Assembly (NCBI GenBank): GCA_000092065.1
Contig: CP000594.1
Reading direction: 5' to 3' (one strand)
DNA length: 64,000 nucleotides
From: Ostreococcus lucimarinus
Lineage: Eukaryota
Shown: positions 3,310 through 38,259 of the stretch, one piece after another
Layout of the letters: each line of letters starts with the position of its first letter
Position numbering within the stretch: position 1 is the stretch's first letter
Position numbers and translations under genes: made by a program
The notes under the pieces: model-generated
Databases searched by the model: none
Seen by the model: the letters and a program-made list of their open reading frames with translations, nothing else
What the model was told of the DNA's origin: nothing

Positions 3310-3439
3310 CTTCCCCCCCGACGCCTCCGACGCCCCGCGCGCGTCGCGCGCCGTCTCCACGCTTTTCCTGCGCGCCGTCTCCGCGCGCGGCGTCGCTCGC
3401 GCCGTCGCAGTCGTCGTCTCTCGCGCGTCTCGATCGCGT

Positions 3440-3444
<5 letters not shown>

Positions 3445-3474
<30 letters not shown>
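3445..3474. repeat. (GTC)n trinucleotide microsatellite, ~9-10 units
   Basis: gtcgtcgtcgtcgtcgtcgtcgtcgtc read directly; it lies in GC-rich sequence upstream of the 2728..3309 gene. Boundaries ±2 nt. Confidence 0.7.
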
Positions 3475-3822
3475 CTTCTCCTCGCCATCGTCGATCGCCC
3501 GCGCGTCGCGCGCGTCCGCGCGCGCGCGCGCCGATCCGTCGTCGTCGGCGTCATCGCGCGCGCGCGCCGGCGCGTCCTCGTCGCTGTCGCTGACGTCGAA
3601 CTCCGTCAGCGACGGCGCGTCGTACCTGTCGCGAATCGAACCGTCGCGCGATAAAACTCAGTCTCCGCGCGTCGCTCCGTCTCCGCGCGCGCGCCGCGCG
3701 CGCGCGCGCGTCACGCACGTCATCGCGCGTCGTCGCTTGCGCGCGTCGTCGTCGTCGCGCGCCGCGTCGCGTTTCGGCGGTCGAAACGACGCCATTCGGC
3801 GGTCGAAACGGCGCGCGACAGA

Positions 3823-4554
3823 ATGACGCGCGACGGCGACGGCGACCGCGCGTGGTGCGTCGCCGGCGCGCGCGCGAGCGACGCGCATCGCGTGACGTAC
3901 GCCGCGTACGAGGTCTCGACGAGCGCGATCGCGGTGTACGTCGCGCGCAGACGAGCGATTGGTGAATTCGAATCGAGGCACCGCGATGACGACGAAAACG
4001 ACGACGCGACGACGCGCGACGCGCGCGCGTTCGTCGTCGACGTCGAAAAAACGCGGCGACGCGTTCGCGCGGAGCGAGGGTACGAGCTGGCGAGGACCGC
4101 GGCGGAGATGATGGCGAGGACGAAGCGGGCGTTCGAGCGGGACGAGGTGGCGGTGGCGGGGACGACGGCGACGCCGCGGCGAAAAGCGACGACGACGACG
4201 ACGACGGGAGCTTGGGCGGACGAGGGCGCGAGGGAAGGAGACACGGTTGAGATCGAGTGGGTGGAGCGCGAGGACGGGGAGGCGCGGGAGGTGACGTACG
4301 TGGAGGCGTTGGAATGGATCAACGAGGCGTTCGCGCGAGCGAGCGAACGAACGAAACGCGAACGGGAGGCGAAGAGACGGAGAGATGAGGGAAAGGGCGA
4401 GGATGAGAAAGGCTCGAGGAGCGCGAGTGCGACGCCGAAAGCGTCGCCGGCGAAGGGGACGAGCGTGGGGAAGTGGATGAGCGAGGCGACGCGGACGCGG
4501 CCAAAGTTGAAAGCCGTGGCGGAGCGAGAGAGATTGAATGAAGAAAACGAATGA
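3823..4554 (+). CDS. Hypothetical charged protein (243 aa), divergent partner of the 2728..3309 gene
   Basis: True ATG at 3823. The sequence is not Arg-only junk (…GDTVEIEWVEREDGEAREVTYVEALEWINEAFARASERTKREREAKRRRDEGKGEDEK…). I see no recognisable domain. Confidence 0.4.
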   Translation: MTRDGDGDRAWCVAGARASDAHRVTYAAYEVSTSAIAVYVARRRAIGEFESRHRDDDENDDATTRDARAFVVDVEKTRRRVRAERGYELARTAAEMMARTKRAFERDEVAVAGTTATPRRKATTTTTTGAWADEGAREGDTVEIEWVEREDGEAREVTYVEALEWINEAFARASERTKREREAKRRRDEGKGEDEKGSRSASATPKASPAKGTSVGKWMSEATRTRPKLKAVAERERLNEENE

Positions 4555-4575
4555 TTGATTGAATTACGCGGCTAA

Positions 4576-6309
4576 TCATTTACCGTCGTTGAGCGTCCAG
4601 TCGTACGCGCGCGTCGTTAACGTGACGTCTTTGCCTTCGTCGAGCGCGCGCAGTAAACCTTCGCGATGTTTGCCTTGGCGCATGTACTTTGAGACGTATC
4701 GCAGACGCTCGGCGTCGGAATCGCCGAAGTCGAATTTGTACCACTCGCCGACGATTTTACTCACCGCCGCCGACGTCGCGTCGCCGTTTTCGGAGAGCTC
4801 TACGTCGATTTCCGACTCGAAGAAGGAAAACGCCGCGTCTTCGAGCTCGCGGTCGATATTCTCAGCCGTGTAGACGCGAATGGGAGGGCACGAACGCGCG
4901 CCGCACACCAACGCAAAGTGAATTCGAGGATCCATCGGCAGCACGACGTGGTTCCTTCGCGGATCCTTCTCGCGAAAAGGACCTCGCGACAGCGATGGTT
5001 TTCCCGCGAGCGCACCGATCGTGGCCGCGCCCGGTCGGTTCCCGCGCAAGATTCCGTTCTCGATGTCGTCGCACGTGTACACGGCGCCGGCGACGTCGTA
5101 CGAAACCTTGGAGAAGAAATCCAAACGCTCGAGCGTGTTCTTGGGCGTGCCAAACACACACGTTCCGTGAATCACGAGGGCATTGTACAGATTGATGAAA
5201 AACGCCATGCGTTCTTCGCGCGACAACGCGTTCAAGTTGACGCGCTGAAGCTCTTCGCACGCTTCGACGAAATCTTTAAAGCCGTCGCTCTGACGAACGC
5301 CATCGTAATCCACCGCGCGCCCGTCGTCGCTGAGAAATTCGTCATAGAGCTTCAGTATGCGTCCGCGAACATCCTCCGCGACGATTTTAGCGTCTCGCGC
5401 TTGTCCAACGTACAAATTCGCCGCGTTCAACGGCGCACACCCCAAAGACGGCGCCTCGGATCGAAAGCGAAACAGCGGCGCGTCCGCGGCGTCGACGACG
5501 CGAAACGCGTGCGTCGCGTCGACGTCACCGATCAATCGCTCGCGCACCATGGCCGCCCCCAACCGCGCAGCCTCTTCTTCCGTCGACGCTTTACCGTTTT
5601 TCATCATCCAATCCACCGCATCTTTCGCCGTGAACACGCCCTTATGCGTCTTCACCAGCCCGAAGACGCCATCCGACAACCCGCCGAATCGTCGCTCCGT
5701 CCTTCGCGTCACCCCCCCCGTCGTCGCCGCCATCGCCCGCGCCACCGCCGCCGCGTCCCCCGCCTCATTCGATCCCTTATTCACCAATTTCGTCAACCAC
5801 GACGACGACGACGACGTCGCCACCGCCGGCGCTTTCGGCGTCTCCAGCGTCCCGTTCGCGAACGCCTCGCTCGCCTCGCGAAGCGCCCGCGGCGCGCCGT
5901 CCATCCCTCTCTCCCTCGCCTCCCGCGCCTTGGCCACGAGATCGCCGCTTTCGATCCCCGCGCACGTATCGTCGGCGCCGCCGTATATCTCTCCCCCCAC
6001 GAACACCTGCGGCACCGATCGAAAGCCCGCGAGCGCCGACGACGCCGCGCGCAGCGCCGCCGCGTCGTCGACGCTAATCTCATCGAACGCGATCCCCGCC
6101 TCGCCGAGCGCGCTCTTCGCGCGCTTGCAGTGCGGACACGACGACGTGCCGACCACCGTGACCGACGTCGCGCCGTCCGTCGTCGCCGCGCGCGCGCGCG
6201 ACGCCGCGCGAGTCGACGCGTGATGTCCCGAGCGATGACGCATTCGCGTCGCGCGCGCGTCGACGAGCGCGCCGATCGTCGCGCGGACGCGACGCGGCGT
6301 CGCGCGCAT
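4576..6309 (-). CDS. Glutaredoxin–DEP–DUF547 multidomain protein with N-terminal transit-peptide-like region
   Basis: Grx motif SCPHCKRAKSAL…VPQVFVGGEIYGGADDT. DEP-like GVFTAKDAVDWMMKNGKASTEEEA. DUF547 block FFINLYNALVIHG…HFALVCGARSCPPIRVYTAENIDRELEDAAFSFF. Start set to internal ATG M194 (MRATPRRVRATIGALVDARATRMRHRS…); the 193 codons upstream are His/Arg-rich antisense of the MINDY gene. Confidence 0.8.
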   Translation of the reverse strand: MRATPRRVRATIGALVDARATRMRHRSGHHASTRAASRARAATTDGATSVTVVGTSSCPHCKRAKSALGEAGIAFDEISVDDAAALRAASSALAGFRSVPQVFVGGEIYGGADDTCAGIESGDLVAKAREARERGMDGAPRALREASEAFANGTLETPKAPAVATSSSSSWLTKLVNKGSNEAGDAAAVARAMAATTGGVTRRTERRFGGLSDGVFGLVKTHKGVFTAKDAVDWMMKNGKASTEEEAARLGAAMVRERLIGDVDATHAFRVVDAADAPLFRFRSEAPSLGCAPLNAANLYVGQARDAKIVAEDVRGRILKLYDEFLSDDGRAVDYDGVRQSDGFKDFVEACEELQRVNLNALSREERMAFFINLYNALVIHGTCVFGTPKNTLERLDFFSKVSYDVAGAVYTCDDIENGILRGNRPGAATIGALAGKPSLSRGPFREKDPRRNHVVLPMDPRIHFALVCGARSCPPIRVYTAENIDRELEDAAFSFFESEIDVELSENGDATSAAVSKIVGEWYKFDFGDSDAERLRYVSKYMRQGKHREGLLRALDEGKDVTLTTRAYDWTLNDGK

Positions 6310-6411
6310 GTCTCGCGCGCGCGTCGACCCGCGCGCGCGCGACGCGAGCGCCGACGCGCGACGCGACGCGTCGAAGAGTGTCGGCACGTCGGGACACCGC
6401 GACGCGAGACG
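6310..6411. promoter_or_regulatory. ~100-bp shared (bidirectional) promoter/5'-UTR region between the divergent Grx–DEP–DUF547 and MINDY genes
   Basis: The two ATGs sit at 6309 (minus) and 6412 (plus). Function is inferred from gene arrangement only. Confidence 0.4.
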
Positions 6412-7788
6412 ATGGCCGCGAGCGCCGTCGACGACGCGTGGTTCGCCGTCAAGGCGGTCGAGACGACGCATCCCGTGCGTCGCGTCGTCGCGCTGCGATG
6501 CCAGAACGAAAACGGCCCGTGTCCGCTGCTCGCGGTGGTGAACGCGCTGGAATTCAAGTCTGAGCTCGGTCGAGCCGGCGACGAAAACGACGCGAGCGAC
6601 GCGACGCGCGCCTCGACGCCGGCGTCGCTGCGCGAGACGATGTCGCGAGTGATGGAACACATGCTCGTGCGCGCGGAGGCGATGGCGAAGCGCGAAGACG
6701 TGGATGAGGAGACGGTGCGGATGACGCTGGACGACGCGACGGCGACGCTGGAGAGAAGCGCGAAGGGCGTCGACGTGAACGTGCGCTTCGACGCGTGCGA
6801 GAGCTTTGAGTACACGAAAGAGATGACGATGTTTGATCTGTGTGGGTTGAGGTTGGTGCACGGCTGGGTGGTGGGCGAGGTCGAACACGGCGCGGAGACG
6901 GCGCGGTTGTGCTCGAGCGTCGGTTACAACGGTTTGGTGGAGCGCCTGATTGATTTACGGACGACGGCGAGCGGTGAGGGGACGAGGGAAGGGCGAGAGG
7001 AAGGAAACGGTGAAACGCGAACGCTCGAGGCGTCGGTGAGCGGTGCGAGCGCGGGCGAGGCGCGGGAGGGGGAAACGTCGGGCGAACGCGAGGAGCGAGA
7101 ACTGTTGGAGCGCGCGATGAGGCTTTCGATGGAGGATTCGCGAGACGCCAAGCTCGCGAGAGCGATGCACGAGGCGGATTTGATCGAAACGTTTCTCAAC
7201 GATACCGCGAGTCAACTCACGCTCACGGGATTGGCGCAGATACGGGAGCGGATTCAAGAGCGCGAGTACGCGGTGCTGTTCCGAAACAATCACTTCTCCG
7301 TAATAACCAAGGTGGACGGCGAGCTCTACGCCCTGGTCACCGACAGCGGGTACCAGGATGAACCGGACGTCGTGTGGGAGGTGCTCGGCGGCGCGCGCGA
7401 TGGAACGTTCGCGAATTCAGAATTCAGACCGTTCGAGCCGCGCGCGGAGGGCGCCGGAGCAGCGTCGCCGACGACGCAAACGGCGTCGGCGCTTCCCGAC
7501 ACTTTTCTCCGCGCCGCGCCGTCGACGACGGAGCCCGCGTCGTCGCCGACGAGCGATGAAAAGTCCGATTACGCCGTCGCCCTCGAACTCCAAGCGCAAT
7601 TTGAAGAGGAGGAGCGCCTCGCGCTTCGCGCGGCGGAGCGACGCGTCGCCGAACGCCGCGCCGAGGCGCGAGCCGCGCAATCCCAACCGGCACCACCCGC
7701 GTCCTCGCGTCCGACGACTCGCGGCGCGCGCAAACCCAAACCTAAAAAATCATCTTCCTCCGTCGCCGACTCGTGCGCCATCATGTGA
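6412..7788 (+). CDS. MINDY: MINDY-family (FAM63/DUF544) K48-specific deubiquitinase with UIM-like and C-terminal MIU motifs
   Basis: QNENGPCPLLAVVNALEF (catalytic Cys block), GVDVNVRFDACESFEYT, FDLCGLRLVHGWVV, EREYAVLFRNNHFSVITKVDGELYALVTDSGY: hallmark MINDY-1/2 blocks. ERELLERAMRLSMEDS resembles a UIM. DYAVALELQAQFEEEE matches the MIU consensus (D-x-Φ-x-L-A-x-x-L-Q-x-E-E). Start is the ATG at 6412; the 498 codons upstream in the track ORF are antisense of the Grx gene. Confidence 0.85.
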   Translation: MAASAVDDAWFAVKAVETTHPVRRVVALRCQNENGPCPLLAVVNALEFKSELGRAGDENDASDATRASTPASLRETMSRVMEHMLVRAEAMAKREDVDEETVRMTLDDATATLERSAKGVDVNVRFDACESFEYTKEMTMFDLCGLRLVHGWVVGEVEHGAETARLCSSVGYNGLVERLIDLRTTASGEGTREGREEGNGETRTLEASVSGASAGEAREGETSGEREERELLERAMRLSMEDSRDAKLARAMHEADLIETFLNDTASQLTLTGLAQIRERIQEREYAVLFRNNHFSVITKVDGELYALVTDSGYQDEPDVVWEVLGGARDGTFANSEFRPFEPRAEGAGAASPTTQTASALPDTFLRAAPSTTEPASSPTSDEKSDYAVALELQAQFEEEERLALRAAERRVAERRAEARAAQSQPAPPASSRPTTRGARKPKPKKSSSSVADSCAIM

Positions 7789-7914
7789 TACCAATCTCAG
7801 ACGGTCCCGCCGTCGTCCCGCGCCGTCCGTCCCGCTCGCCGTCCCCGCGCCGAGCGGCACACTCTCGCCCGCGGTGCGATCGTCGCGCCTCGCCGATCGG
7901 CGCGAGATTTCACC

Positions 7915-7990
7915 ATGTCGTGGACGTGGGATTCCTTCGCCAAGGGCGCCGCCGACGCCGCCGAGACCACGCGTCTGGTCGCCATCAAGG
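7915..7990 (+). CDS. Exon 1 of a small two-exon coiled-coil protein gene (MSWTWDSFAKGAADAAETTRLVAIK|G…)
   Basis: ORF 7915.. runs straight into GTGCGT (the donor used elsewhere in this window) after AAG G. Confidence 0.45.
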
Positions 7991-8055
7991 GTGCGTCTCC
8001 CTCCGCGCCTTTAAACTTCAAACTCACTTCAACTTCTTCGTCGACCCGTTCCCAG

Positions 8056-8357
8056 GCGCGAAACAGGCTGAAATCATGTACAAAGAGCGTAACATCACGT
8101 CCACGACGCAACAATTCGGCGTCGACTGCTTCGCGGCGATGGAGGCGAACGATCAGGCGCGCGCGGCGTCGCTCTTCGCCGCGGCCAAGCGCGAGGTCGA
8201 CGCGTACCGCGCCGACATCGCGCAGCTCAATCGCGAGATCGACGGCGTGAACGTCGAGATAGAAAATGTAGGTCGGGAGGACGCCGCGAGCGCGGCGCCG
8301 CCGGTCGTGCGGGCGACGCCGCCGAACGCGCGCGGCGCTTCGCTGCAAGACTTGTAA
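8056..8357 (+). CDS. Exon 2 of the same small gene (…AKQAEIMYKERNITSTTQQFGVDCFAAMEANDQARAASLFAAAKREVDAYRADIAQLNREIDGVNVEIENV…LQDL*)
   Basis: The acceptor cccag|GC restores the frame of track ORF 7773..8357 (the split codon gives Gly). The putative intron 7991..8055 is only ~65 nt. Confidence 0.45.
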
Positions 8358-8744
8358 AGGTAACAACATTCTTCGAAATCGCGGCACACCGCGACGCCGC
8401 GCGTCGACGCGCGCGCGACGATGCGGACCGCGCGCGCGACGCGCGTCGCGCCGCCGCCGAGGCGCGCTGGAAGCGCGAGACGCGCCGCGCGCGAGACGCA
8501 GACGCGCGCGAAAGGGCGAGCGCCGCCACATCGTTCGGGACACTCGTCGAGGATTTCGATCGCGACGCGCGCGTACGAGCGCGATCGCGACGATGATGCG
8601 TACGCGAACGCGCAGAGGGATGTGTTCGATGATCGAGCGTTGGTCAGAGCGCCCGCGCGGCGACGACGAGGGCGCGAGGGGGAGCGGGATGGACGACGAG
8701 GCGCGTTCGGCGACTTCAAGACGCCGCGGACGCCGACGGAGGCG

Positions 8745-9278
8745 ATGCGGGCGCTGTTGTCGCCGTTCGGAGCGTTTGTCGTCGCCGCGATCGTGAGTGT
8801 GGCGAATCCAACGTTCATGACGAGCGGGCGAGAGGCGATACTGATGAAACTTTACGAAAGGCAGAGCGGCGGCGAAACCTCGGCGTACGTCAAGGACGGC
8901 GTTTTGTATCGCATGGACGCGTCGGGGAGCATGACGGCCAACGCGAAGGATGGGATCATGGTGGATAAGAATGGGGGGATATGGGTGATCGTTCCGCAGA
9001 AGGATGATGTGACGTTGATCAAGCAGAAGTATTACATGGGACAGATCGAAGACGTGCCGACGCTGCCGAAGAATCCGTCGGCGGCGGAGCAGAAAAAGTA
9101 CGACGAATTCATGGCCAAGTTGTTCGATTTCGAAAAGCTTCCGAACGTTAAGAAGGTGTACGATGGACCCTATCCCGTGCCCGTTCGTAAAGAGACGGAG
9201 AAATTCTTCCGCGAAGGGTTGCCCGCGAGCGTGATGGATGAAATCGAAGGTGTGGGCGCGTTGTTTGAACAACGATGA
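8745..9278 (+). CDS. Small secreted/membrane protein (N-terminal hydrophobic segment MRALLSPFGAFVVAAIVSVANPTF, then conserved-looking soluble domain)
   Basis: Internal ATG (codon 109) of ORF 8421..9278; the upstream part is Arg-rich. The downstream sequence (…SGREAILMKLYERQSGGETSAYVKDGVLYRMDASGSMTANAKDGIMVDKNGGIWVIVPQKDDVTLIKQKYYMGQIEDVPTLPKNPSAAEQKKYDEFMAKLFDFEKLPNVKKVYDGPYPVPV…) has ordinary protein composition; family not recognised. Confidence 0.5.
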   Translation: MRALLSPFGAFVVAAIVSVANPTFMTSGREAILMKLYERQSGGETSAYVKDGVLYRMDASGSMTANAKDGIMVDKNGGIWVIVPQKDDVTLIKQKYYMGQIEDVPTLPKNPSAAEQKKYDEFMAKLFDFEKLPNVKKVYDGPYPVPVRKETEKFFREGLPASVMDEIEGVGALFEQR

Positions 9279-9316
9279 CGACGTGCGCGCTTTTAATACT
9301 GTACATCTACTTTGTT

Positions 9317-11038
9317 TCATCTAATTCTACTGTTCAACACCATTCGTATGTCGTCGCGAAGGCTCAAGATTTTTCGCGCGTGCTCAGCGCTCGCGTCTTC
9401 GATTTCAAACCTGATTTGCCGCGTCGCCTTTTCGAGCTCGCCGAGCGCGTGCTCGCGATCGTGCTTGATTTCCTCTTCGATCGCGAGTTTGTGCTCGTCG
9501 AGAATACCACCATCGCGCGTGATCGTCGCTGCGCGCGCAGATACTTCGCTCAGCGCGATTTGCGCCGATGACATCGCCTGACGAAGCTCATTCAACTCAA
9601 ACGATGCTTGCGACTTGTATGTCTCGAATTCGCCGCGAACGGCGAGGATTTCTTCGCGAACTTCCGCAATGGCGGCGTCGTACGTCTCTGCTTGATCCTC
9701 GAGCGCCTTTTCCAAAGCCTGCGCGTATAACTCGCCTCGTTTTCGCGCGTCCGCTTCGTTCTCGCGCAACGTTTTCATGTCCTGAAGCATGCGCTCCTCC
9801 TCTGCTCGCAGCGCTCTGAGCACGGCGTCTCGTTCGACGCGATCGCTTTCGTTCAAACCTTCTTCGTCCCGCACGACTTTTTCCACATCTTTGGCCATTG
9901 TTTCGGACACCTCACGAATTTCCGCGCTAGCGCGGAGGAGGAGCTTGACGTGCGCCGCCGTAGAAGTTTCGTAGTGCCGCGCCATGTCGTCTCTCGAGCA
10001 TCGAAAAACGCAACCAACCTCGTGAAATTCGCACAGCAACTCCACCGATGGGCACGTCAACTCCAAATGTTGCTTCATGTCCGCCGCAGATACCAGCGCG
10101 CCGCATCCCGCGGTGCACGCGCGACGAATCTTCACGCACACCTGCTTGTGACGAAGCGCGCTTCGCTCGCTCACGAGCGTTTGACAATCCGAGCACGCCA
10201 CCGTTCGCGCGTACTCGCACATCTCCTGTCTATGTCTCGCCAGCGCGTTTCGTTTCATCATCGCCGGACAGCATCGCGTGTGTTCATCCGCATCCGCCTC
10301 ATCGACGACGCCGCACAAAACTTCCTTCACCGGACAAATCTCTTCGTGCCGCGCCACCGCGTCGGCGTTCGTCATCGTCGCCCGGCACCCGTGCCTACAC
10401 GCCACCGGTTTATGCTCGCACACGTCCGCGTGATCCCTCGCGTACATCGCGCTCCCCACCCAATCACACCCCGCGTTCGCGCACCCCCTCGCGGCGTACG
10501 CGCACTCCTCCCGATGTCCCTCCAGCGCCCTCCTCGCGCACTCCGCCGCGCACGTCCCCGTCAACCGCCTTCCCGCGTCCCGCTCCGCGAGTCCGCAAAT
10601 CACAATCTTAAAATCGCACTCCTCCGCGTGTCGCGCCAGATCTGCGAACCGCACGATCGCCCCGCAGCATCGATCGCCGAATCCTCGATGATCGAGCGTC
10701 GCGCTCCCGTCCGCGCTCGCGTCGTCCCGTCGCCACGCGTACGGGCAGTGCGCGCGCAGGTTGGAGATTTCAAGCATCAGCGCCTCGTCCGCGACGTAAT
10801 CCTCCTCCGTCGCCGCGCGTCTGCACACCGCGCACGTACCGCTCTGTGCGATCGATTCGCGCGCGCACAGCGCGCACAGCGCGTGTCCGCACGGCGCGCG
10901 ACGCGGTTTTCGCAGCACGTCTTTGCACGCGGGACACATCGTCGAATCGGGCGGTCGCGACGCGAACACCACGCGCTCGCGCGACGCGGAGACGTAGACG
11001 ACGCCGTAGCCCTCGACGGCGACCGCGCGGAGCACCAT
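9317..11038 (-). CDS. RING (C3HC4) + TRAF-type zinc-finger + C-terminal coiled-coil protein; putative E3 ubiquitin ligase
   Basis: RING CPACKDVLRKPRRAPCGHALCALCARESIAQSGTCAVCRR, followed by several Cys/His-rich TRAF-type zinc-finger repeats (…CPYAWRRDD…HAEECDFKIVICG…CEHKPVACRHGC…HEEICPVKEVLCG…) and a ~200-aa heptad-rich tail. Start set to the first ATG (MVLRAVAVEGYG…). Confidence 0.8.
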   Translation of the reverse strand: MVLRAVAVEGYGVVYVSASRERVVFASRPPDSTMCPACKDVLRKPRRAPCGHALCALCARESIAQSGTCAVCRRAATEEDYVADEALMLEISNLRAHCPYAWRRDDASADGSATLDHRGFGDRCCGAIVRFADLARHAEECDFKIVICGLAERDAGRRLTGTCAAECARRALEGHREECAYAARGCANAGCDWVGSAMYARDHADVCEHKPVACRHGCRATMTNADAVARHEEICPVKEVLCGVVDEADADEHTRCCPAMMKRNALARHRQEMCEYARTVACSDCQTLVSERSALRHKQVCVKIRRACTAGCGALVSAADMKQHLELTCPSVELLCEFHEVGCVFRCSRDDMARHYETSTAAHVKLLLRASAEIREVSETMAKDVEKVVRDEEGLNESDRVERDAVLRALRAEEERMLQDMKTLRENEADARKRGELYAQALEKALEDQAETYDAAIAEVREEILAVRGEFETYKSQASFELNELRQAMSSAQIALSEVSARAATITRDGGILDEHKLAIEEEIKHDREHALGELEKATRQIRFEIEDASAEHARKILSLRDDIRMVLNSRIR

Positions 11039-11137
11039 CGCGGCGCGGCGCGGCGATCGCGTCGCGAGCGCGTTTCTGGCGGTTGGTCGGCGGCGGCGGC
11101 GCGTTTCGAGGCGGCGGCGCGCGGTCGGTCGATTCAA

Positions 11138-12145
11138 TCATGAACTATTGGACACGTTTCGGGCGACTTCTAAGTGCGCGTCGCGGTAACCTTCTCTGTG
11201 CGCTACCCATAACGGCAGGAACTCGCGCATGGAGATCTCGCCGCCGTTTCGATGGAACGCGAGCGCGACTTCGACGCCGAATCGCTCGTCGACGACCGGG
11301 ACGACGACTTCGTTCAGCGCCTCGGCGTAACGATCGGAGCCTGGACATTCGCAAGCGCACGCGTACTTCAAACAGTCCAAATGTCCTTTCCAGGCGGCAG
11401 ACGCGCACATCGTTTCGTTCCAATCACACCCGTTCTCGTGCGCGTACTTCAGACAGTCCAAATGTCCTTCCCAGGCGGCAGACGCGCACGTCCTCTCGTC
11501 CCAATCACACCCGCGCTCGTGCGCGTACTTCAAACACTCCAAATGTCCACCATCGGCGGCATTGTCGCACGTCCATGCGTCCCAATCACACCCTTGCTCG
11601 TGCGCGTACTTCAGACAGTCCAAATGTCCTTTCCAGGCGGCAGACGCGCACGTCCTCTCGTTCCAAGGATACCCGTGCTCGTGCGCGTACTTCAAACAGT
11701 CCAAGTGTCCATTCCAGGCGGCAGCGATGCACGTGTTCTCGTTCCAAGGACACCCGTTCTCGTGCGCGTACTTCAAACAGTCCAGATTTCCATAATAGGC
11801 GGCAATCGCGCACGTCCACTCGTCCCACGGCGCCACGTGCTCGCGCGCGAACTTCAAACATCCTGAACCCATAATGCGCGCAGCCCGCATGCACGCCCCC
11901 GCATGTACTGTTCGAAAGAAACTCTCCTTGTCATCAAACTCGCCACCGTCGCCAACCCGCCAACTCTCCTTGTCATCAAACTCGCCACCGTCGCCAACCC
12001 GGTACCAATCGACGCCGTCGCGTCTCAAATCTTGTAAAAACGACGCCACCGCATCCCTCACGTCGTCCGGGACGCGCACGAGTTCACGGATGAGTGCGTC
12101 GTAGACTTCATTCTGCCTCCGCGGCTCTTCCTCGTCGAACTCCAT
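11138..12145 (-). CDS. Ankyrin-like tandem-repeat protein: ~6.5 copies of a 27-residue unit GHLDCLKYAHENGCPW(D/N)ExTCxxAAWx
   Basis: Track ORF 11138..12319 (codon 1 is GTG); start moved to ATG M59 (MEFDEEEPRRQNEVYDALIRELV…). Repeats GNLDCLKYAHENGCPWNENTCIAAAWN / GHLDCLKYAHEHGYPWNERTCASAAWK / GHLDCLKYAHEQGCDWDAWTCDNAADG / GHLECLKYAHERGCDWDERTCASAAWE / GHLDCLKYAHENGCDWNETMCASAAWK. This matches the short ankyrin-like 'LKxAHENGCPWDE' family common in marine protists and nucleocytoplasmic large DNA viruses (my recollection). Confidence 0.75.
   Translation of the reverse strand: MEFDEEEPRRQNEVYDALIRELVRVPDDVRDAVASFLQDLRRDGVDWYRVGDGGEFDDKESWRVGDGGEFDDKESFFRTVHAGACMRAARIMGSGCLKFAREHVAPWDEWTCAIAAYYGNLDCLKYAHENGCPWNENTCIAAAWNGHLDCLKYAHEHGYPWNERTCASAAWKGHLDCLKYAHEQGCDWDAWTCDNAADGGHLECLKYAHERGCDWDERTCASAAWEGHLDCLKYAHENGCDWNETMCASAAWKGHLDCLKYACACECPGSDRYAEALNEVVVPVVDERFGVEVALAFHRNGGEISMREFLPLWVAHREGYRDAHLEVARNVSNSS
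11342..11899. repeat. 81-bp tandem repeat array (~6.5 units) encoding the 27-aa ankyrin-like repeats
   Basis: gtacttca(a/g)aca(g/c)tccaaatgtcc… recurs with an 81-nt period on the plus strand; copies share ~85-95% identity. Confidence 0.8.
11921..12007. repeat. Direct ~42-bp duplication inside the ankyrin-like gene (encodes W(Y)RVGDGGEFDDKES twice)
   Basis: ctctccttgtcatcaaactcgccaccgtcgccaacccg occurs twice in tandem. Confidence 0.7.
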
Positions 12146-12170
12146 CCCGCGCGTCGCGCCGTGGCGCGCG

Positions 12171-12210
12171 TCGTCTCGTCTCGTCTCGTCTCGTCTCGTC
12201 TCGTCTCGTC
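12171..12210. repeat. (CGTCT)8 pentanucleotide microsatellite, in-frame in the 5' region of the ankyrin-like ORF (encodes RRDETRRDETRRD)
   Basis: cgtctcgtctcgtct… ×8 read directly. A 5-nt unit cycles through all three frames every 15 nt, giving the RRDET peptide repeat. Confidence 0.8.
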
Positions 12211-12522
12211 TCGGAGGACCCGAACCGCCGCGAGTGACGGGAGGGTCAGCCAAAGTGACGCACTGTCGGAGCGTCGACCTCGCAAAAAACGGACCATCGA
12301 TAGGTAAAAATGCCGACACGAGCTCACAGTTAAACTAAAACCCTAAAAATATGATGCCGTATGCGATGAACACGCGTCCGCCACAGTGGGCTTCGACGAC
12401 GTGAAGTGGAGGAATGAGCGCCGCACTCGGGCGCCCCGCGCGCGGCGCCGCTGTGGCGAAAGTTACGGTTTTTTCGTCGTCAACAACCGTCGACTCGACG
12501 ACGCCGAGCGCGCGAGGCGCGA

Positions 12523-37990: not shown

Positions 37991-38215
37991 GTTCGATCGA
38001 TCGATCGATCGATCGCGCGCGTCGCGCGTCAAACCTCGACGCGTCGATGCGACGCATCTATCGATCGACGCGCGCGGGTTCAATCGGCGCGCGGCGTCGT
38101 CGATCGATCGATCGATCGCGCGCGTCGCGCGTCGAACCTCGACGCGCCGATGCGACGCATCTATCGATCGACGCGCGCGGGTTCGATCGGCGCGCGGCGT
38201 CGTCGATCGAACGAT
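37991..38215. repeat. Two tandem copies of a ~109-bp unit, each starting with a (GATC)4-5 tetranucleotide run, in the NOL10/GT47 divergent promoter
   Basis: …cgatcgatcgatcgatcgcgcgcgtcgcgcgtc(a/g)aacctcgacgcg(t/c)cgatgcgacgcatctatcgatcgacgcgcgcgggttc(a/g)atcggcgcgcggcgtcgtcgatcga… occurs twice at ~96% identity. The same peptide (SIDRSIDRARRASNLDASMRRIYRSTRAGSIGARRRRS) appears twice in the spurious upstream extension of ORF 37777. Boundaries ±3. Confidence 0.75.
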
Positions 38216-38259
38216 CGACCGCGCGACGCCGCGCGCGCACACGGCGACGGCGCGCGTCG

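Follow-up and report, generated by a model that had tools for sequence, protein, structure and literature searches.

The window analysed here, a 64-kb stretch of the Ostreococcus lucimarinus genome, carries on its minus strand a gene for an ankyrin-repeat protein, whose parts and upstream elements are as follows.

11138-12145, minus strand: ankyrin-repeat coding sequence with Pfam Ank matches, 335 codons plus stop, beginning at the first in-frame ATG (MEFDEEE...)
11141-11347, minus strand: C-terminal helical domain of 69 residues (CPGSDRYAEALNEV...GEISMREFLPLW...), from the AlphaFold model
11348-11872, minus strand: ankyrin array of six 27-residue (81-bp) units followed by a C-terminal capping half-unit
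11872-11792, 11791-11711 and 11710-11630, minus strand: ankyrin units 1 to 3
11629-11549, 11548-11468 and 11467-11387, minus strand: ankyrin units 4 to 6
11920-12001, minus strand: 42-bp segment repeated exactly in tandem, coding for RVGDGGEFDDKES(W/F) twice (2.0 copies, 100% identity by Tandem Repeats Finder, TRF)
12020-12139, minus strand: N-terminal helical hairpin, residues 3-42, from the AlphaFold model and the family alignment
12146-12172, minus strand: almost invariant 27-nt leader GACGCGCGCCACGGCGCGACGCGCGGG, which separates the microsatellite from the ATG
12173-12212, minus strand: microsatellite, (GAGAC)8 in coding-strand orientation, 27 nt ahead of the ATG; TRF reports it as (TCGTC)8.6 at 12171-12213
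12146-12472, minus strand: upstream intergenic region with the putative promoter and 5' leader, homologous between paralogous loci

The sequence-only reading had proposed a longer open reading frame at 11138-12319, but its 393 codons require a GTG start, i.e. the bacterial code. Between the upstream gene and position 12145 the minus strand has no in-frame ATG, and the sole other ATG in this interval, at 12297, lies in another frame and begins a uORF of 16 codons. The RefSeq model of a paralogue, XP_001421506, likewise begins at the homologous methionine (MEFDEEE). Because the host is a eukaryote, no in-frame ATG lies upstream and the paralogue starts at the same residue, we adopted the 335-aa model with its start at 12145. 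Exact matches in the protein collection were found neither for this protein nor for the 393-aa form or two shorter start variants, and given this absence the reference annotation of O. lucimarinus may omit the gene.

The gene is embedded in an ordinary part of the chromosome. Its neighbours are Nup160, ProRS, TLC-transporter and RING/TRAF genes (the ProRS ORF in the window is 100% identical to XP_001421209), the regional GC content is normal, and the GC3 of the ankyrin gene (0.70, against 0.64-0.79 in neighbouring genes), as well as its GC content and codon usage, falls within the range of the adjacent housekeeping genes. The 64-kb window contains no Rfam or tRNA matches. Neither terminal inverted repeats nor target-site duplications were found around the gene, leaving a mobile-element origin of its dispersed copies unsupported. 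A linkage with the adjoining RING/TRAF E3 and MINDY deubiquitinase was considered as well; this arrangement is not kept at the paralogous loci, and we treat it as coincidence.

The 81-bp array is the strongest tandem repeat of the whole window (TRF, 11360-11860, 6.2 copies, 82% matches, score 609). Searching the window with a degenerate probe for the CLKYAHE helix gave six matches, all within the array, versus 0.04 expected by chance, and CLK[YF]A helices recur at intervals of exactly 27 residues. The internal units share 73-90% DNA identity, while both ends are diverged caps, the first unit being 62-69% and the last 42-56% identical to the others. The three repeat layers described in the sequence-only reading are all present where it had placed them; with 82% matches, however, the 81-bp units are not near-identical as it had called them.

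Its suggestion of an ankyrin-like motif can be made more definite, as the array is a true ankyrin repeat. Among the Pfam Ank clan models tested (PF00023, PF12796, PF13637 and PF13857), scores exceed the gathering cut-offs for Ank_4 (71.2 bits, cut-off 22.7), Ank_5 (65.5, 27), Ank_2 (50.7, 27.3) and Ank (27.3, 21.1). The AlphaFold model of the 335-aa protein (pLDDT 81.6, pTM 0.73) predicts regular stacked antiparallel helix pairs forming a solenoid over residues 84-264. With this predicted model as the query, Foldseek returned probabilities of 1.0 against DARPins, designed ankyrin proteins and FEM1C, and an rmsd of 2.8 over 217 columns against the solved ankyrin protein 4o60. As modelled, the protein thus has an ankyrin-solenoid fold. 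Alignment to the 33-residue consensus leaves one 6-residue gap per repeat, located in the loop; the 27-residue period and this recurrent gap identify the array as a short variant of the ankyrin fold.

Conservation within the repeat is strongly position-dependent. The signature positions T20, A24, A25, G1, H2 and L3 are retained, an invariant C21 replaces proline, and positions 22 and 23, which correspond to the L-H of the signature, are hypervariable. Together with positions 19, 26 and 27 they reach entropies of 2.2-3.3 bits, whereas most framework positions stay below 1 bit. The variable positions coincide in part with what we take to be the positions randomised in DARPins, and judging from the alignment they may partly correspond to the surface by which canonical ankyrin domains bind their targets.

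The array is flanked by two further structured parts. In the N-terminal hairpin, helices 3-24 and 27-42 are modelled with pLDDT of about 90, and F36, L37 and W47 are invariant across the family alignment. The 69-residue C-terminal domain is predicted to form helices at 271-279, 283-299 and 306-334. No credible Pfam family was found for either domain. An exhaustive search of 1.84 billion representative proteins matched the C-terminal domain to 13 proteins only, a word-index search with the same 69 residues returned nine short fragments and nothing else, and both terminal domains are restricted to Ostreococcus-like sequences. An EF-hand-like reading of the segment NGGEISMREF was rejected; the residues that would bind calcium are not conserved, and the loop in the model is too short. 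Between the hairpin and the array lies an acidic linker predicted to be disordered (pLDDT below 50 over residues 52-81), in which the 42-bp duplication is coding and accounts for two 14-aa copies, residues 49-62 and 63-76. This duplication had been noticed from the bare letters and holds up as exact; an independent environmental assembly (P0028/L126) has it as well, and it is missing from L001/P0001 and most relatives.

The protein as a whole has a net charge of about -28. Its first 25 residues are hydrophilic (mean Kyte-Doolittle -0.99), and by simple hydropathy rather than a dedicated predictor no signal peptide or transmembrane segment was detected, the maximum over 19-residue windows being 1.17. 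By these sequence properties it is a soluble protein, and the surface location that had been proposed for it is unlikely.

O. lucimarinus-like DNA contains at least three loci with this architecture.

Locus 1, in the window: gene order 372aa, ANK, RING-TRAF
Locus 2, on the 66-kb contig L005: gene order CBS, ANK, RPL6
Locus 3, on contigs L125 and L126: gene order tRNA-Thr, ANK, HDAC

The protein of the second locus (P0022) has the long N-terminus and the NLIAHD C-terminus of XP_001421506, and its contig also matches O. lucimarinus-like flanks. Homology between loci extends beyond the coding region: positions 925-1814 of L126 correspond to 12472-11578 of the window at 95% identity, and L005 matches 12331-12092 at 93% with homology continuing to 11126, 12 nt beyond the stop codon. 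Since the upstream region is shared by paralogous loci, the duplicated unit comprises promoter, leader and coding sequence.

Scanning of metagenome contigs yielded mostly generic ankyrin genes, with about 12 matches being true members of the family. The comparison sequences are mostly short-read metagenome assemblies (megahit k141, SPAdes), in which 81-bp repeats may collapse or paralogues may be joined; taken as assembled, 58 full-length relatives contain 3-9 ankyrin helices in an exact 27-residue period with no frameshift. The framework and the terminal caps remain fixed, while the cassettes, drawn from a limited set, change their order and are gained by duplication or lost by deletion. For instance, units of the near-identical environmental contig L001 match the window units at a shift of two repeats, and most of its variant k-mers recur at other loci.

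Comparison of the window with this contig revealed 40 substitutions in the gene itself (~1 kb), versus 12 across 7.98 kb of flanking sequence. The divergence of the gene thus appears ~27-fold that of the flanks (about 4% vs 0.15%); L001 ends within the microsatellite, so its 5' part is not anchored to the window locus. Synonymous sites are elevated as much as non-synonymous ones (pS 0.040, pN 0.042), which points to recombination or conversion and not to selection alone; a dN/dS close to 1 between two alleles would also fit relaxed constraint. The expectation of a length-variable, fast-evolving locus is borne out by the range of 3-9 units, the presence or absence of the 42-bp duplication, the microsatellite counts given below and the excess divergence over the flanks.

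A part of this variability could nevertheless have been produced by the assemblies themselves. A slowly evolving cellular ankyrin adaptor under relaxed constraint, its hypervariability and mosaic contexts being mostly short-read artefacts, is a reading that we regard as unlikely while giving it appreciable weight. It would account for three contigs (L002, L003 and L004) that join the upstream flank of one locus to the downstream flank of another, with the switch inside the shared repeat region, as chimeric assembly through a shared ~300-bp stretch would do. It would also account for P0005, which is P0001 lacking the stretch that separates two identical ASWE cassettes, as expected from repeat collapse, and the dN/dS of about 1 fits it too. 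However, repeat number differs also among long contigs and the finished reference, with B-type genes having six units in XP_001421506, seven on contigs of 66, 99 and 144 kb and nine on a 22-kb contig. The same variants were recovered repeatedly, from independent samples and by more than one assembler (the P0028 cluster counts eight members, and the L125 contig occurs in three samples), and the 42-bp duplication is shared by the reference and L126 and lacking elsewhere. Finally, the reference paralogue, itself B-type, carries the A-type N-terminal segment RRQNEVYDAL in place of the RRDDAFYDEL of most environmental B-type genes, which argues for real gene conversion.

The sequence-only reading had further linked the repeat family to giant viruses. 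The 27-residue subtype is indeed abundant there and in protists: its consensus (GHLDCLKYAHENGCPWD..TC..AA..) occurs in many giant-virus MAGs, 40 giant-virus loci match, the identity reaching 64% across about 240 residues, and the translated viral loci L085-L097 carry the consensus GHLxCLKYAHENGCPW. Proteins of Pandoravirus, Bodo saltans virus and Cedratvirus reach 48-49% identity and an rmsd of 1.6 Å (Foldseek/BFVD). A hypervariable putative binding face is what would be expected of a conflict gene, and viral ankyrin families are thought to have been shaped by arms races (PMC5871332).

Acquisition of the gene or its repeat module from a giant virus, with a role in virus-host interaction such as that of a prasinovirus-derived or anti-prasinovirus factor, is nonetheless improbable in our assessment. 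The viral matches cover the ankyrin part alone and never the N- or C-terminal domains, and the C-terminal domain is limited to a handful of Ostreococcus-like clusters. The host-like composition and the housekeeping neighbourhood described above give no sign of recent transfer, and the same repeat type occurs in diatoms (Chaetoceros) and other protists, so that a transfer, if any, could have gone in either direction. Prasinoviruses in particular are absent from the viral matches and from the literature found, and the proposed prasinovirus link is not supported.

It is similarly doubtful that the dispersed paralogues constitute a recombining cassette system in which gene conversion and unequal exchange would keep generating new binding surfaces on an intracellular receptor-like protein in natural populations, as a basis for strain-specific recognition of proteins of prasinoviruses or other parasites, with the flank-joining contigs representing real chromosomal rearrangements that arose through exchange between the paralogues.

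The microsatellite upstream of the gene had been described as a (CGTCT)8 tract tolerated in frame and encoding 'RRDET x2.6'. This segment is not translated, and its in-frame appearance is an artefact of applying bacterial start codons to a eukaryotic gene. At related loci the (GAGAC)n tract has 5, 5, 6 (plus one imperfect), 7, 7, 7, 8, 8, 8, 9 and 9 copies; such single 5-nt steps, which would break a reading frame, and the position upstream of the first ATG establish that it is non-coding. The adjacent 27-nt leader is identical in eight contigs (L002-L005, L125, L126, L014 and L007); in the divergent L012 a single base is changed. A leader hairpin was considered and rejected: no significant RNA structure is predicted for the leader including the microsatellite, the fold being less stable than shuffled controls (z = +1.8). 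We suggest that (GAGAC)n is a hypermutable non-coding element of the leader or promoter that may tune expression. A contingency-type locus, in which simple-sequence repeats would switch or alter a surface protein, is very improbable, since the tract, although fixed in site in all family members and variable in count (5-9), lies outside the coding sequence where frameshift switching is impossible, the protein lacks a signal peptide or membrane segment, and the leader lacks a predicted stable structure.

Taking these observations together, we favour, with a probability of roughly 60%, a soluble, acidic, intracellular ankyrin-repeat adaptor of O. lucimarinus that belongs to a small dispersed multigene family and whose array evolves by recombination and conversion of cassettes. 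The protein has four parts, namely the N-terminal hairpin, the acidic linker predicted to be disordered, the six 27-residue repeats with their cap, and the lineage-restricted C-terminal domain, and in each family copy a putative promoter and a (GAGAC)n leader precede the coding sequence. Repeat numbers of 3-9 may have arisen by slippage or unequal recombination between the 81-bp cassettes, and gene conversion between cassettes and between paralogues may have reshuffled a limited cassette library. Variation at positions 19, 22, 23, 26 and 27 would diversify binding specificity with the framework retained, while the 42-bp duplication would represent a recent, polymorphic and neutral-looking growth of the linker. 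Any biological role that might follow from such a binding surface is equally conjectural.

If confirmed, the variability would mark this small family as a pronounced hotspot of divergence within a stretch that is otherwise almost clonal, and would make the protein a candidate diversifying recognition protein in a highly abundant marine picoeukaryote. The genetic basis of strain-specific virus resistance in Ostreococcus is still poorly understood. The 27-residue ankyrin subtype dominates the genomes of giant viruses; the gene is also a clean example of it in a cellular organism, and could help to polarise gene exchange between viruses and their hosts.

Several known systems can be compared with this gene. 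Families of LRR or ankyrin repeats that diversify through unequal crossing-over and gene conversion are analogous recombining repeat-cassette families, and they share with it a limited cassette set that is reordered, duplicated and deleted between a fixed framework and caps. No sign of a programmed or somatic mechanism was seen here; the variation is germline or population-level, a part of it possibly stemming from assembly.

The canonical 33-residue ankyrin proteins (DARPins, FEM1C) resemble it in Pfam scores above the cut-off, in the modelled stacked helix-turn-helix solenoid and in the retained T..AA..GHL pattern. They differ in repeat length (27 vs 33 residues), six residues of the beta-hairpin or loop being gone here, and in having TPLH where T-C-x-x is found. 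Each repeat of the Ostreococcus protein has three cysteines, two histidines and one tryptophan that are conserved.

The short-ankyrin families of giant viruses (148 copies in Bodo saltans virus, and those of Pandoravirus, Cedratvirus and GVMAGs) are similar in their almost identical 27-residue consensus and in a variable repeat number per gene, which is 4-17 in Bodo saltans virus (PMC5871332). In contrast to them, the Ostreococcus gene resides on a cellular chromosome among housekeeping neighbours, has host-like composition and additional N- and C-terminal domains, and belongs to a small and dispersed family as opposed to a terminal tandem array.

A cellular counterpart by description is HOM000035, a Mamiellales ankyrin family without known function that has 149 members in Bathycoccus, 56 in M. 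pusilla, 17 in O. lucimarinus and 6 in O. tauri (Moreau et al. 2012, PMC3491373). Both are ankyrin families of the same algal order with an N-terminal part that has no database match; the ankyrin repeats of HOM000035 are described at the C-terminal end, whereas the present gene has an additional conserved C-terminal domain of 69 residues. Compared on the basis of that description, the at least three loci of shared architecture are consistent with membership in HOM000035. The gene is thus real, yet ordinary in kind, an ankyrin gene belonging to a type of family whose expansion in Mamiellales has been reported before.

Tandem repeat search located all three repeat layers that a sequence-only reading had described in one open reading frame:

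11138-12319, minus strand: open reading frame of 393 aa, GTG start, bacterial code
11360-11860, in the minus-strand gene: 81-bp tandem array, 6.2 copies, 82% matches
11920-12001, in the minus-strand gene: exact 42-bp duplication
12171-12213: pentanucleotide (TCGTC)8.6
12146-12172: 27-nt leader GACGCGCGCCACGGCGCGACGCGCGGG, between (GAGAC)n and the ATG, from comparison of paralogues

The array is the top-scoring tandem repeat of the whole window, and a degenerate probe for its CLKYAHE helix gave six matches (0.04 expected), all six within the array. The units are less alike than the "near-identical" copies first described, with 73-90% DNA identity among internal units and diverged caps as first and last units. 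The second-strongest tandem repeat in the window is a 103-bp repeat at 37997-38235 (2.3 copies, 94% matches, score 427).

A GTG counts as a start only in the bacterial code, which the ORF-finding tool used, and the genes nearby are those of a eukaryote (Nup160, a plastid-type TLC ATP/ADP transporter, prolyl-tRNA synthetase, a RING/TRAF protein). The prolyl-tRNA synthetase ORF agrees at 448/448 residues with XP_001421209.1, a protein of Ostreococcus lucimarinus CCE9901, so the window represents this strain or a nearly identical one. When the minus strand was scanned from the stop of the upstream gene (12523) to 12145, a single further ATG was found, at 12297, out of frame and opening a 16-codon uORF. 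The first in-frame ATG, at 12145, yields a 335-aa protein (MEFDEEE...), and RefSeq models the paralogue XP_001421506.1 from the same motif. With this start codon the pentanucleotide, (GAGAC)8 on the coding strand, lies outside the coding sequence, 27 nt upstream. Its copy number in related loci is 5, 5, 6 (+1 imperfect), 7, 7, 7, 8, 8, 8, 9 and 9; a conserved frame would not survive changes of one 5-nt unit at a time, and the proposed in-frame (CGTCT)8 encoding RRDET is therefore an artefact. The tract is nonetheless a true hypervariable microsatellite.

The position of (GAGAC)n is fixed in every family member, and an almost invariant leader follows, GACGCGCGCCACGGCGCGACGCGCGGG being nearly unchanged at the homologous positions of comparison contigs L002-L005, L007, L012, L014, L125 and L126. 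Paralogues sharing it differ in their first coding residues (MEFDEEE, MSLAEEQ, MAHEMA), and its near-invariance suggests that a non-coding element is conserved here or that gene conversion strongly homogenises the copies; RNA structure prediction for the leader gave no stable fold. None of four start variants of the protein had an exact match in a 15-billion-protein collection, which does contain the same-chromosome CCE9901 proteins XP_001421209 and XP_001421506; the gene at 11138-12145 may be unannotated, or otherwise modelled, in the reference.

The expectation of fast, length-variable evolution was borne out. Among 58 full-length relatives with both N- and C-terminal domains, proteins carry 3-9 CLKYA helices, always spaced by 27 residues, and none is frameshifted. 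Internal units belong to a limited set of cassette types whose order, duplication and loss vary between variants, with the caps fixed. The 42-bp duplication is absent from the JGI metagenome contig L001 and most relatives and present in the related protein and contig P0028/L126, and is therefore a real polymorphism. L001 is collinear with the window across 9 kb, and differs from it by 40 substitutions and a 42-bp indel within the ~1-kb gene, versus 12 substitutions and one (GAC)7 indel in the other 7.98 kb, a substitution density ~27-fold higher in the gene. Apart from this 21-nt indel, in a trinucleotide/18-bp tandem repeat at 3384-3475, the 8 kb of flank show no difference in length. Within the gene both divergences are ~4% (pS 0.040, pN 0.042, dN/dS 1.06); because synonymous sites are elevated too, the pattern points to sequence import by recombination or gene conversion, not to selection alone. 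Most variant k-mers of L001 are found again in other loci, and some of its units match window units two positions off. The finished reference sequence of paralogue B, XP_001421506.1, carries the A-type N-terminal segment RRQNEVYDAL, most environmental B-type genes having RRDDAFYDEL, and this is independent evidence for conversion.

The sequences compared are mostly short-read metagenome assemblies, and part of the variation could be chimeric. In L002 and L003 the upstream flank of a tRNA locus is joined to the downstream RING-TRAF flank, and in L004 the upstream flank of a CBS locus is joined to that same flank. Each switch falls within a shared repeat stretch of ~300 bp, as expected of chimeric assembly, although real ectopic exchange would give an identical picture; L001 itself stops in the microsatellite, its upstream side being without an anchor. 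Against an artefact, B-type genes on long contigs and in the reference also differ, with 6, 7 or 9 units, and variants recur across samples and assemblers, which speaks for a substantial share of the variation being genuine.

The family occupies at least three loci in O. lucimarinus-like DNA:

Locus 1, window: between a 372-aa gene and RING-TRAF
Locus 2, 66-kb contig L005: between CBS and RPL6, gene P0022
Locus 3, contigs L125 and L126: between tRNA-Thr(CGT) and histone deacetylase

P0022 shares a long N-terminus and the NLIAHD C-terminus with XP_001421506.1, which in the reference lies with prolyl-tRNA synthetase on one 708,927-bp chromosome record. Homology between loci includes ~330 bp upstream of the ATG, microsatellite within, and between the window and L005 reaches 11126, 12 nt beyond the stop codon; the duplicated unit is bordered by neither inverted repeats nor target duplications. 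At the third locus, the distance from the tRNA-Thr(CGT) gene (L002 3745-3816, L003 665-736, L125 5256-5327) down to the called start of the ankyrin paralogue is roughly 70-190 bp. A RING/TRAF-type E3 ligase gene starts ~100 nt past the ankyrin-repeat stop (window 4300-11137; also L001, L002 and L004), and a MINDY-family deubiquitinase gene lies two genes further downstream; this linkage is probably coincidental, since the paralogous loci do not share it. An ankyrin family without known function, HOM000035, was reported by Moreau et al. (2012; PMC3491373) to range from 6 copies in O. tauri and 17 in O. lucimarinus to 56 in Micromonas pusilla and 149 in Bathycoccus, and the window gene plausibly belongs to it.

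An AlphaFold model built from a 23-sequence family alignment (pLDDT 81.6, pTM 0.73) gave the following layout:

Residues 3-42: N-terminal helical hairpin
Residues 52-81: disordered segment, pLDDT <50
Residues 49-62 and 63-76: 14-aa duplication, in the disordered segment
Residues 84-264: regular helix pairs
Residues 271-334: three C-terminal helices

Pfam has no match for either terminal domain. The 335-aa protein is strongly acidic and has neither a hydrophobic N-terminus nor a membrane segment; it is therefore most likely intracellular, contrary to the suggested surface or contingency role. Each 27-residue unit retains Cys at 5, 14 and 21, His at 2 and 10, and Trp at 16, residues that might bind metal or simply pack the core; the whole protein has 21 Cys, 16 His and 15 Trp.

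The viral and protist affinity noted for the repeat type holds. The query has more than 5,000 protein matches, mainly via the ankyrin part, with Bodo saltans virus and the diatom Chaetoceros among their sources, and Foldseek matched predicted ankyrin proteins of Pandoravirus, Bodo saltans virus and Cedratvirus (up to 48-49% identity, rmsd 1.6 Å over 181 residues). An IMG/VR scan found 40 giant-virus loci with identity up to 64%, all within the repeat region only, and the consensus GHLDCLKYAHENGCPWD..TC..AA.. also occurs in viral contigs of 20-48% GC. The further idea of prasinovirus involvement or horizontal transfer finds no support: no prasinovirus was seen among the viral matches or in the literature retrieved, and nothing indicates recent viral acquisition, because none of the 40 viral loci encodes either terminal domain, the C-domain alone has 13 matches among 1.84 billion representative proteins, and the composition of the gene (GC 0.587, GC3 0.70) is within the neighbours' range (GC3 0.64-0.79). 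A role in virus conflict is possible but unsupported. Two ankyrin genes of the 27-residue subtype on IMG/VR giant-virus MAG contigs (L092 5001-5927, L096 4301-5305) have 63-65% GC in loci of 43-48% GC, which suggests mis-binned cellular DNA or recent acquisition from a GC-rich host. A protein annotated to the aphid Uroleucon formosanum, P0048, combines a BTB domain with a short-ankyrin array of the protist/virus type (covering 67% of the query at 49% identity) and may reflect contamination or transfer.

The original observation is thus real, with one of its three layers misread. In the best-supported scheme the product would be an intracellular ankyrin adaptor whose array diversifies as its 81-bp cassettes slip or exchange unequally and as gene conversion acts between cassettes and between dispersed paralogues, with changes concentrating on a putative binding face. 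The linker duplication would be a tolerated expansion of the disordered segment, and (GAGAC)n a non-coding, hypermutable part of the leader that may affect expression. Interest is modest, unless population-level cassette shuffling proves true.

The ankyrin identity of the repeat is confirmed by Pfam Ank_4, Ank_5, Ank_2 and Ank, all scoring above curated cut-offs, and by Foldseek matches to solved ankyrin proteins (e.g. FEM1C, DARPins and designed ankyrins). Within the repeat, positions 19, 22, 23, 26 and 27 have entropies of 2.2-3.3 bits, against <1 bit for most conserved framework positions. Aligned to canonical ankyrin, the variable positions include the residue preceding the conserved Thr and the two preceding Gly-His, which we take to be equivalent to the target-binding positions of DARPins. 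The period is exactly 27 residues, whereas the consensus ankyrin repeat has 33, and the two align with a 6-residue gap in the loop of every repeat; the Ostreococcus repeat is a short ankyrin variant.
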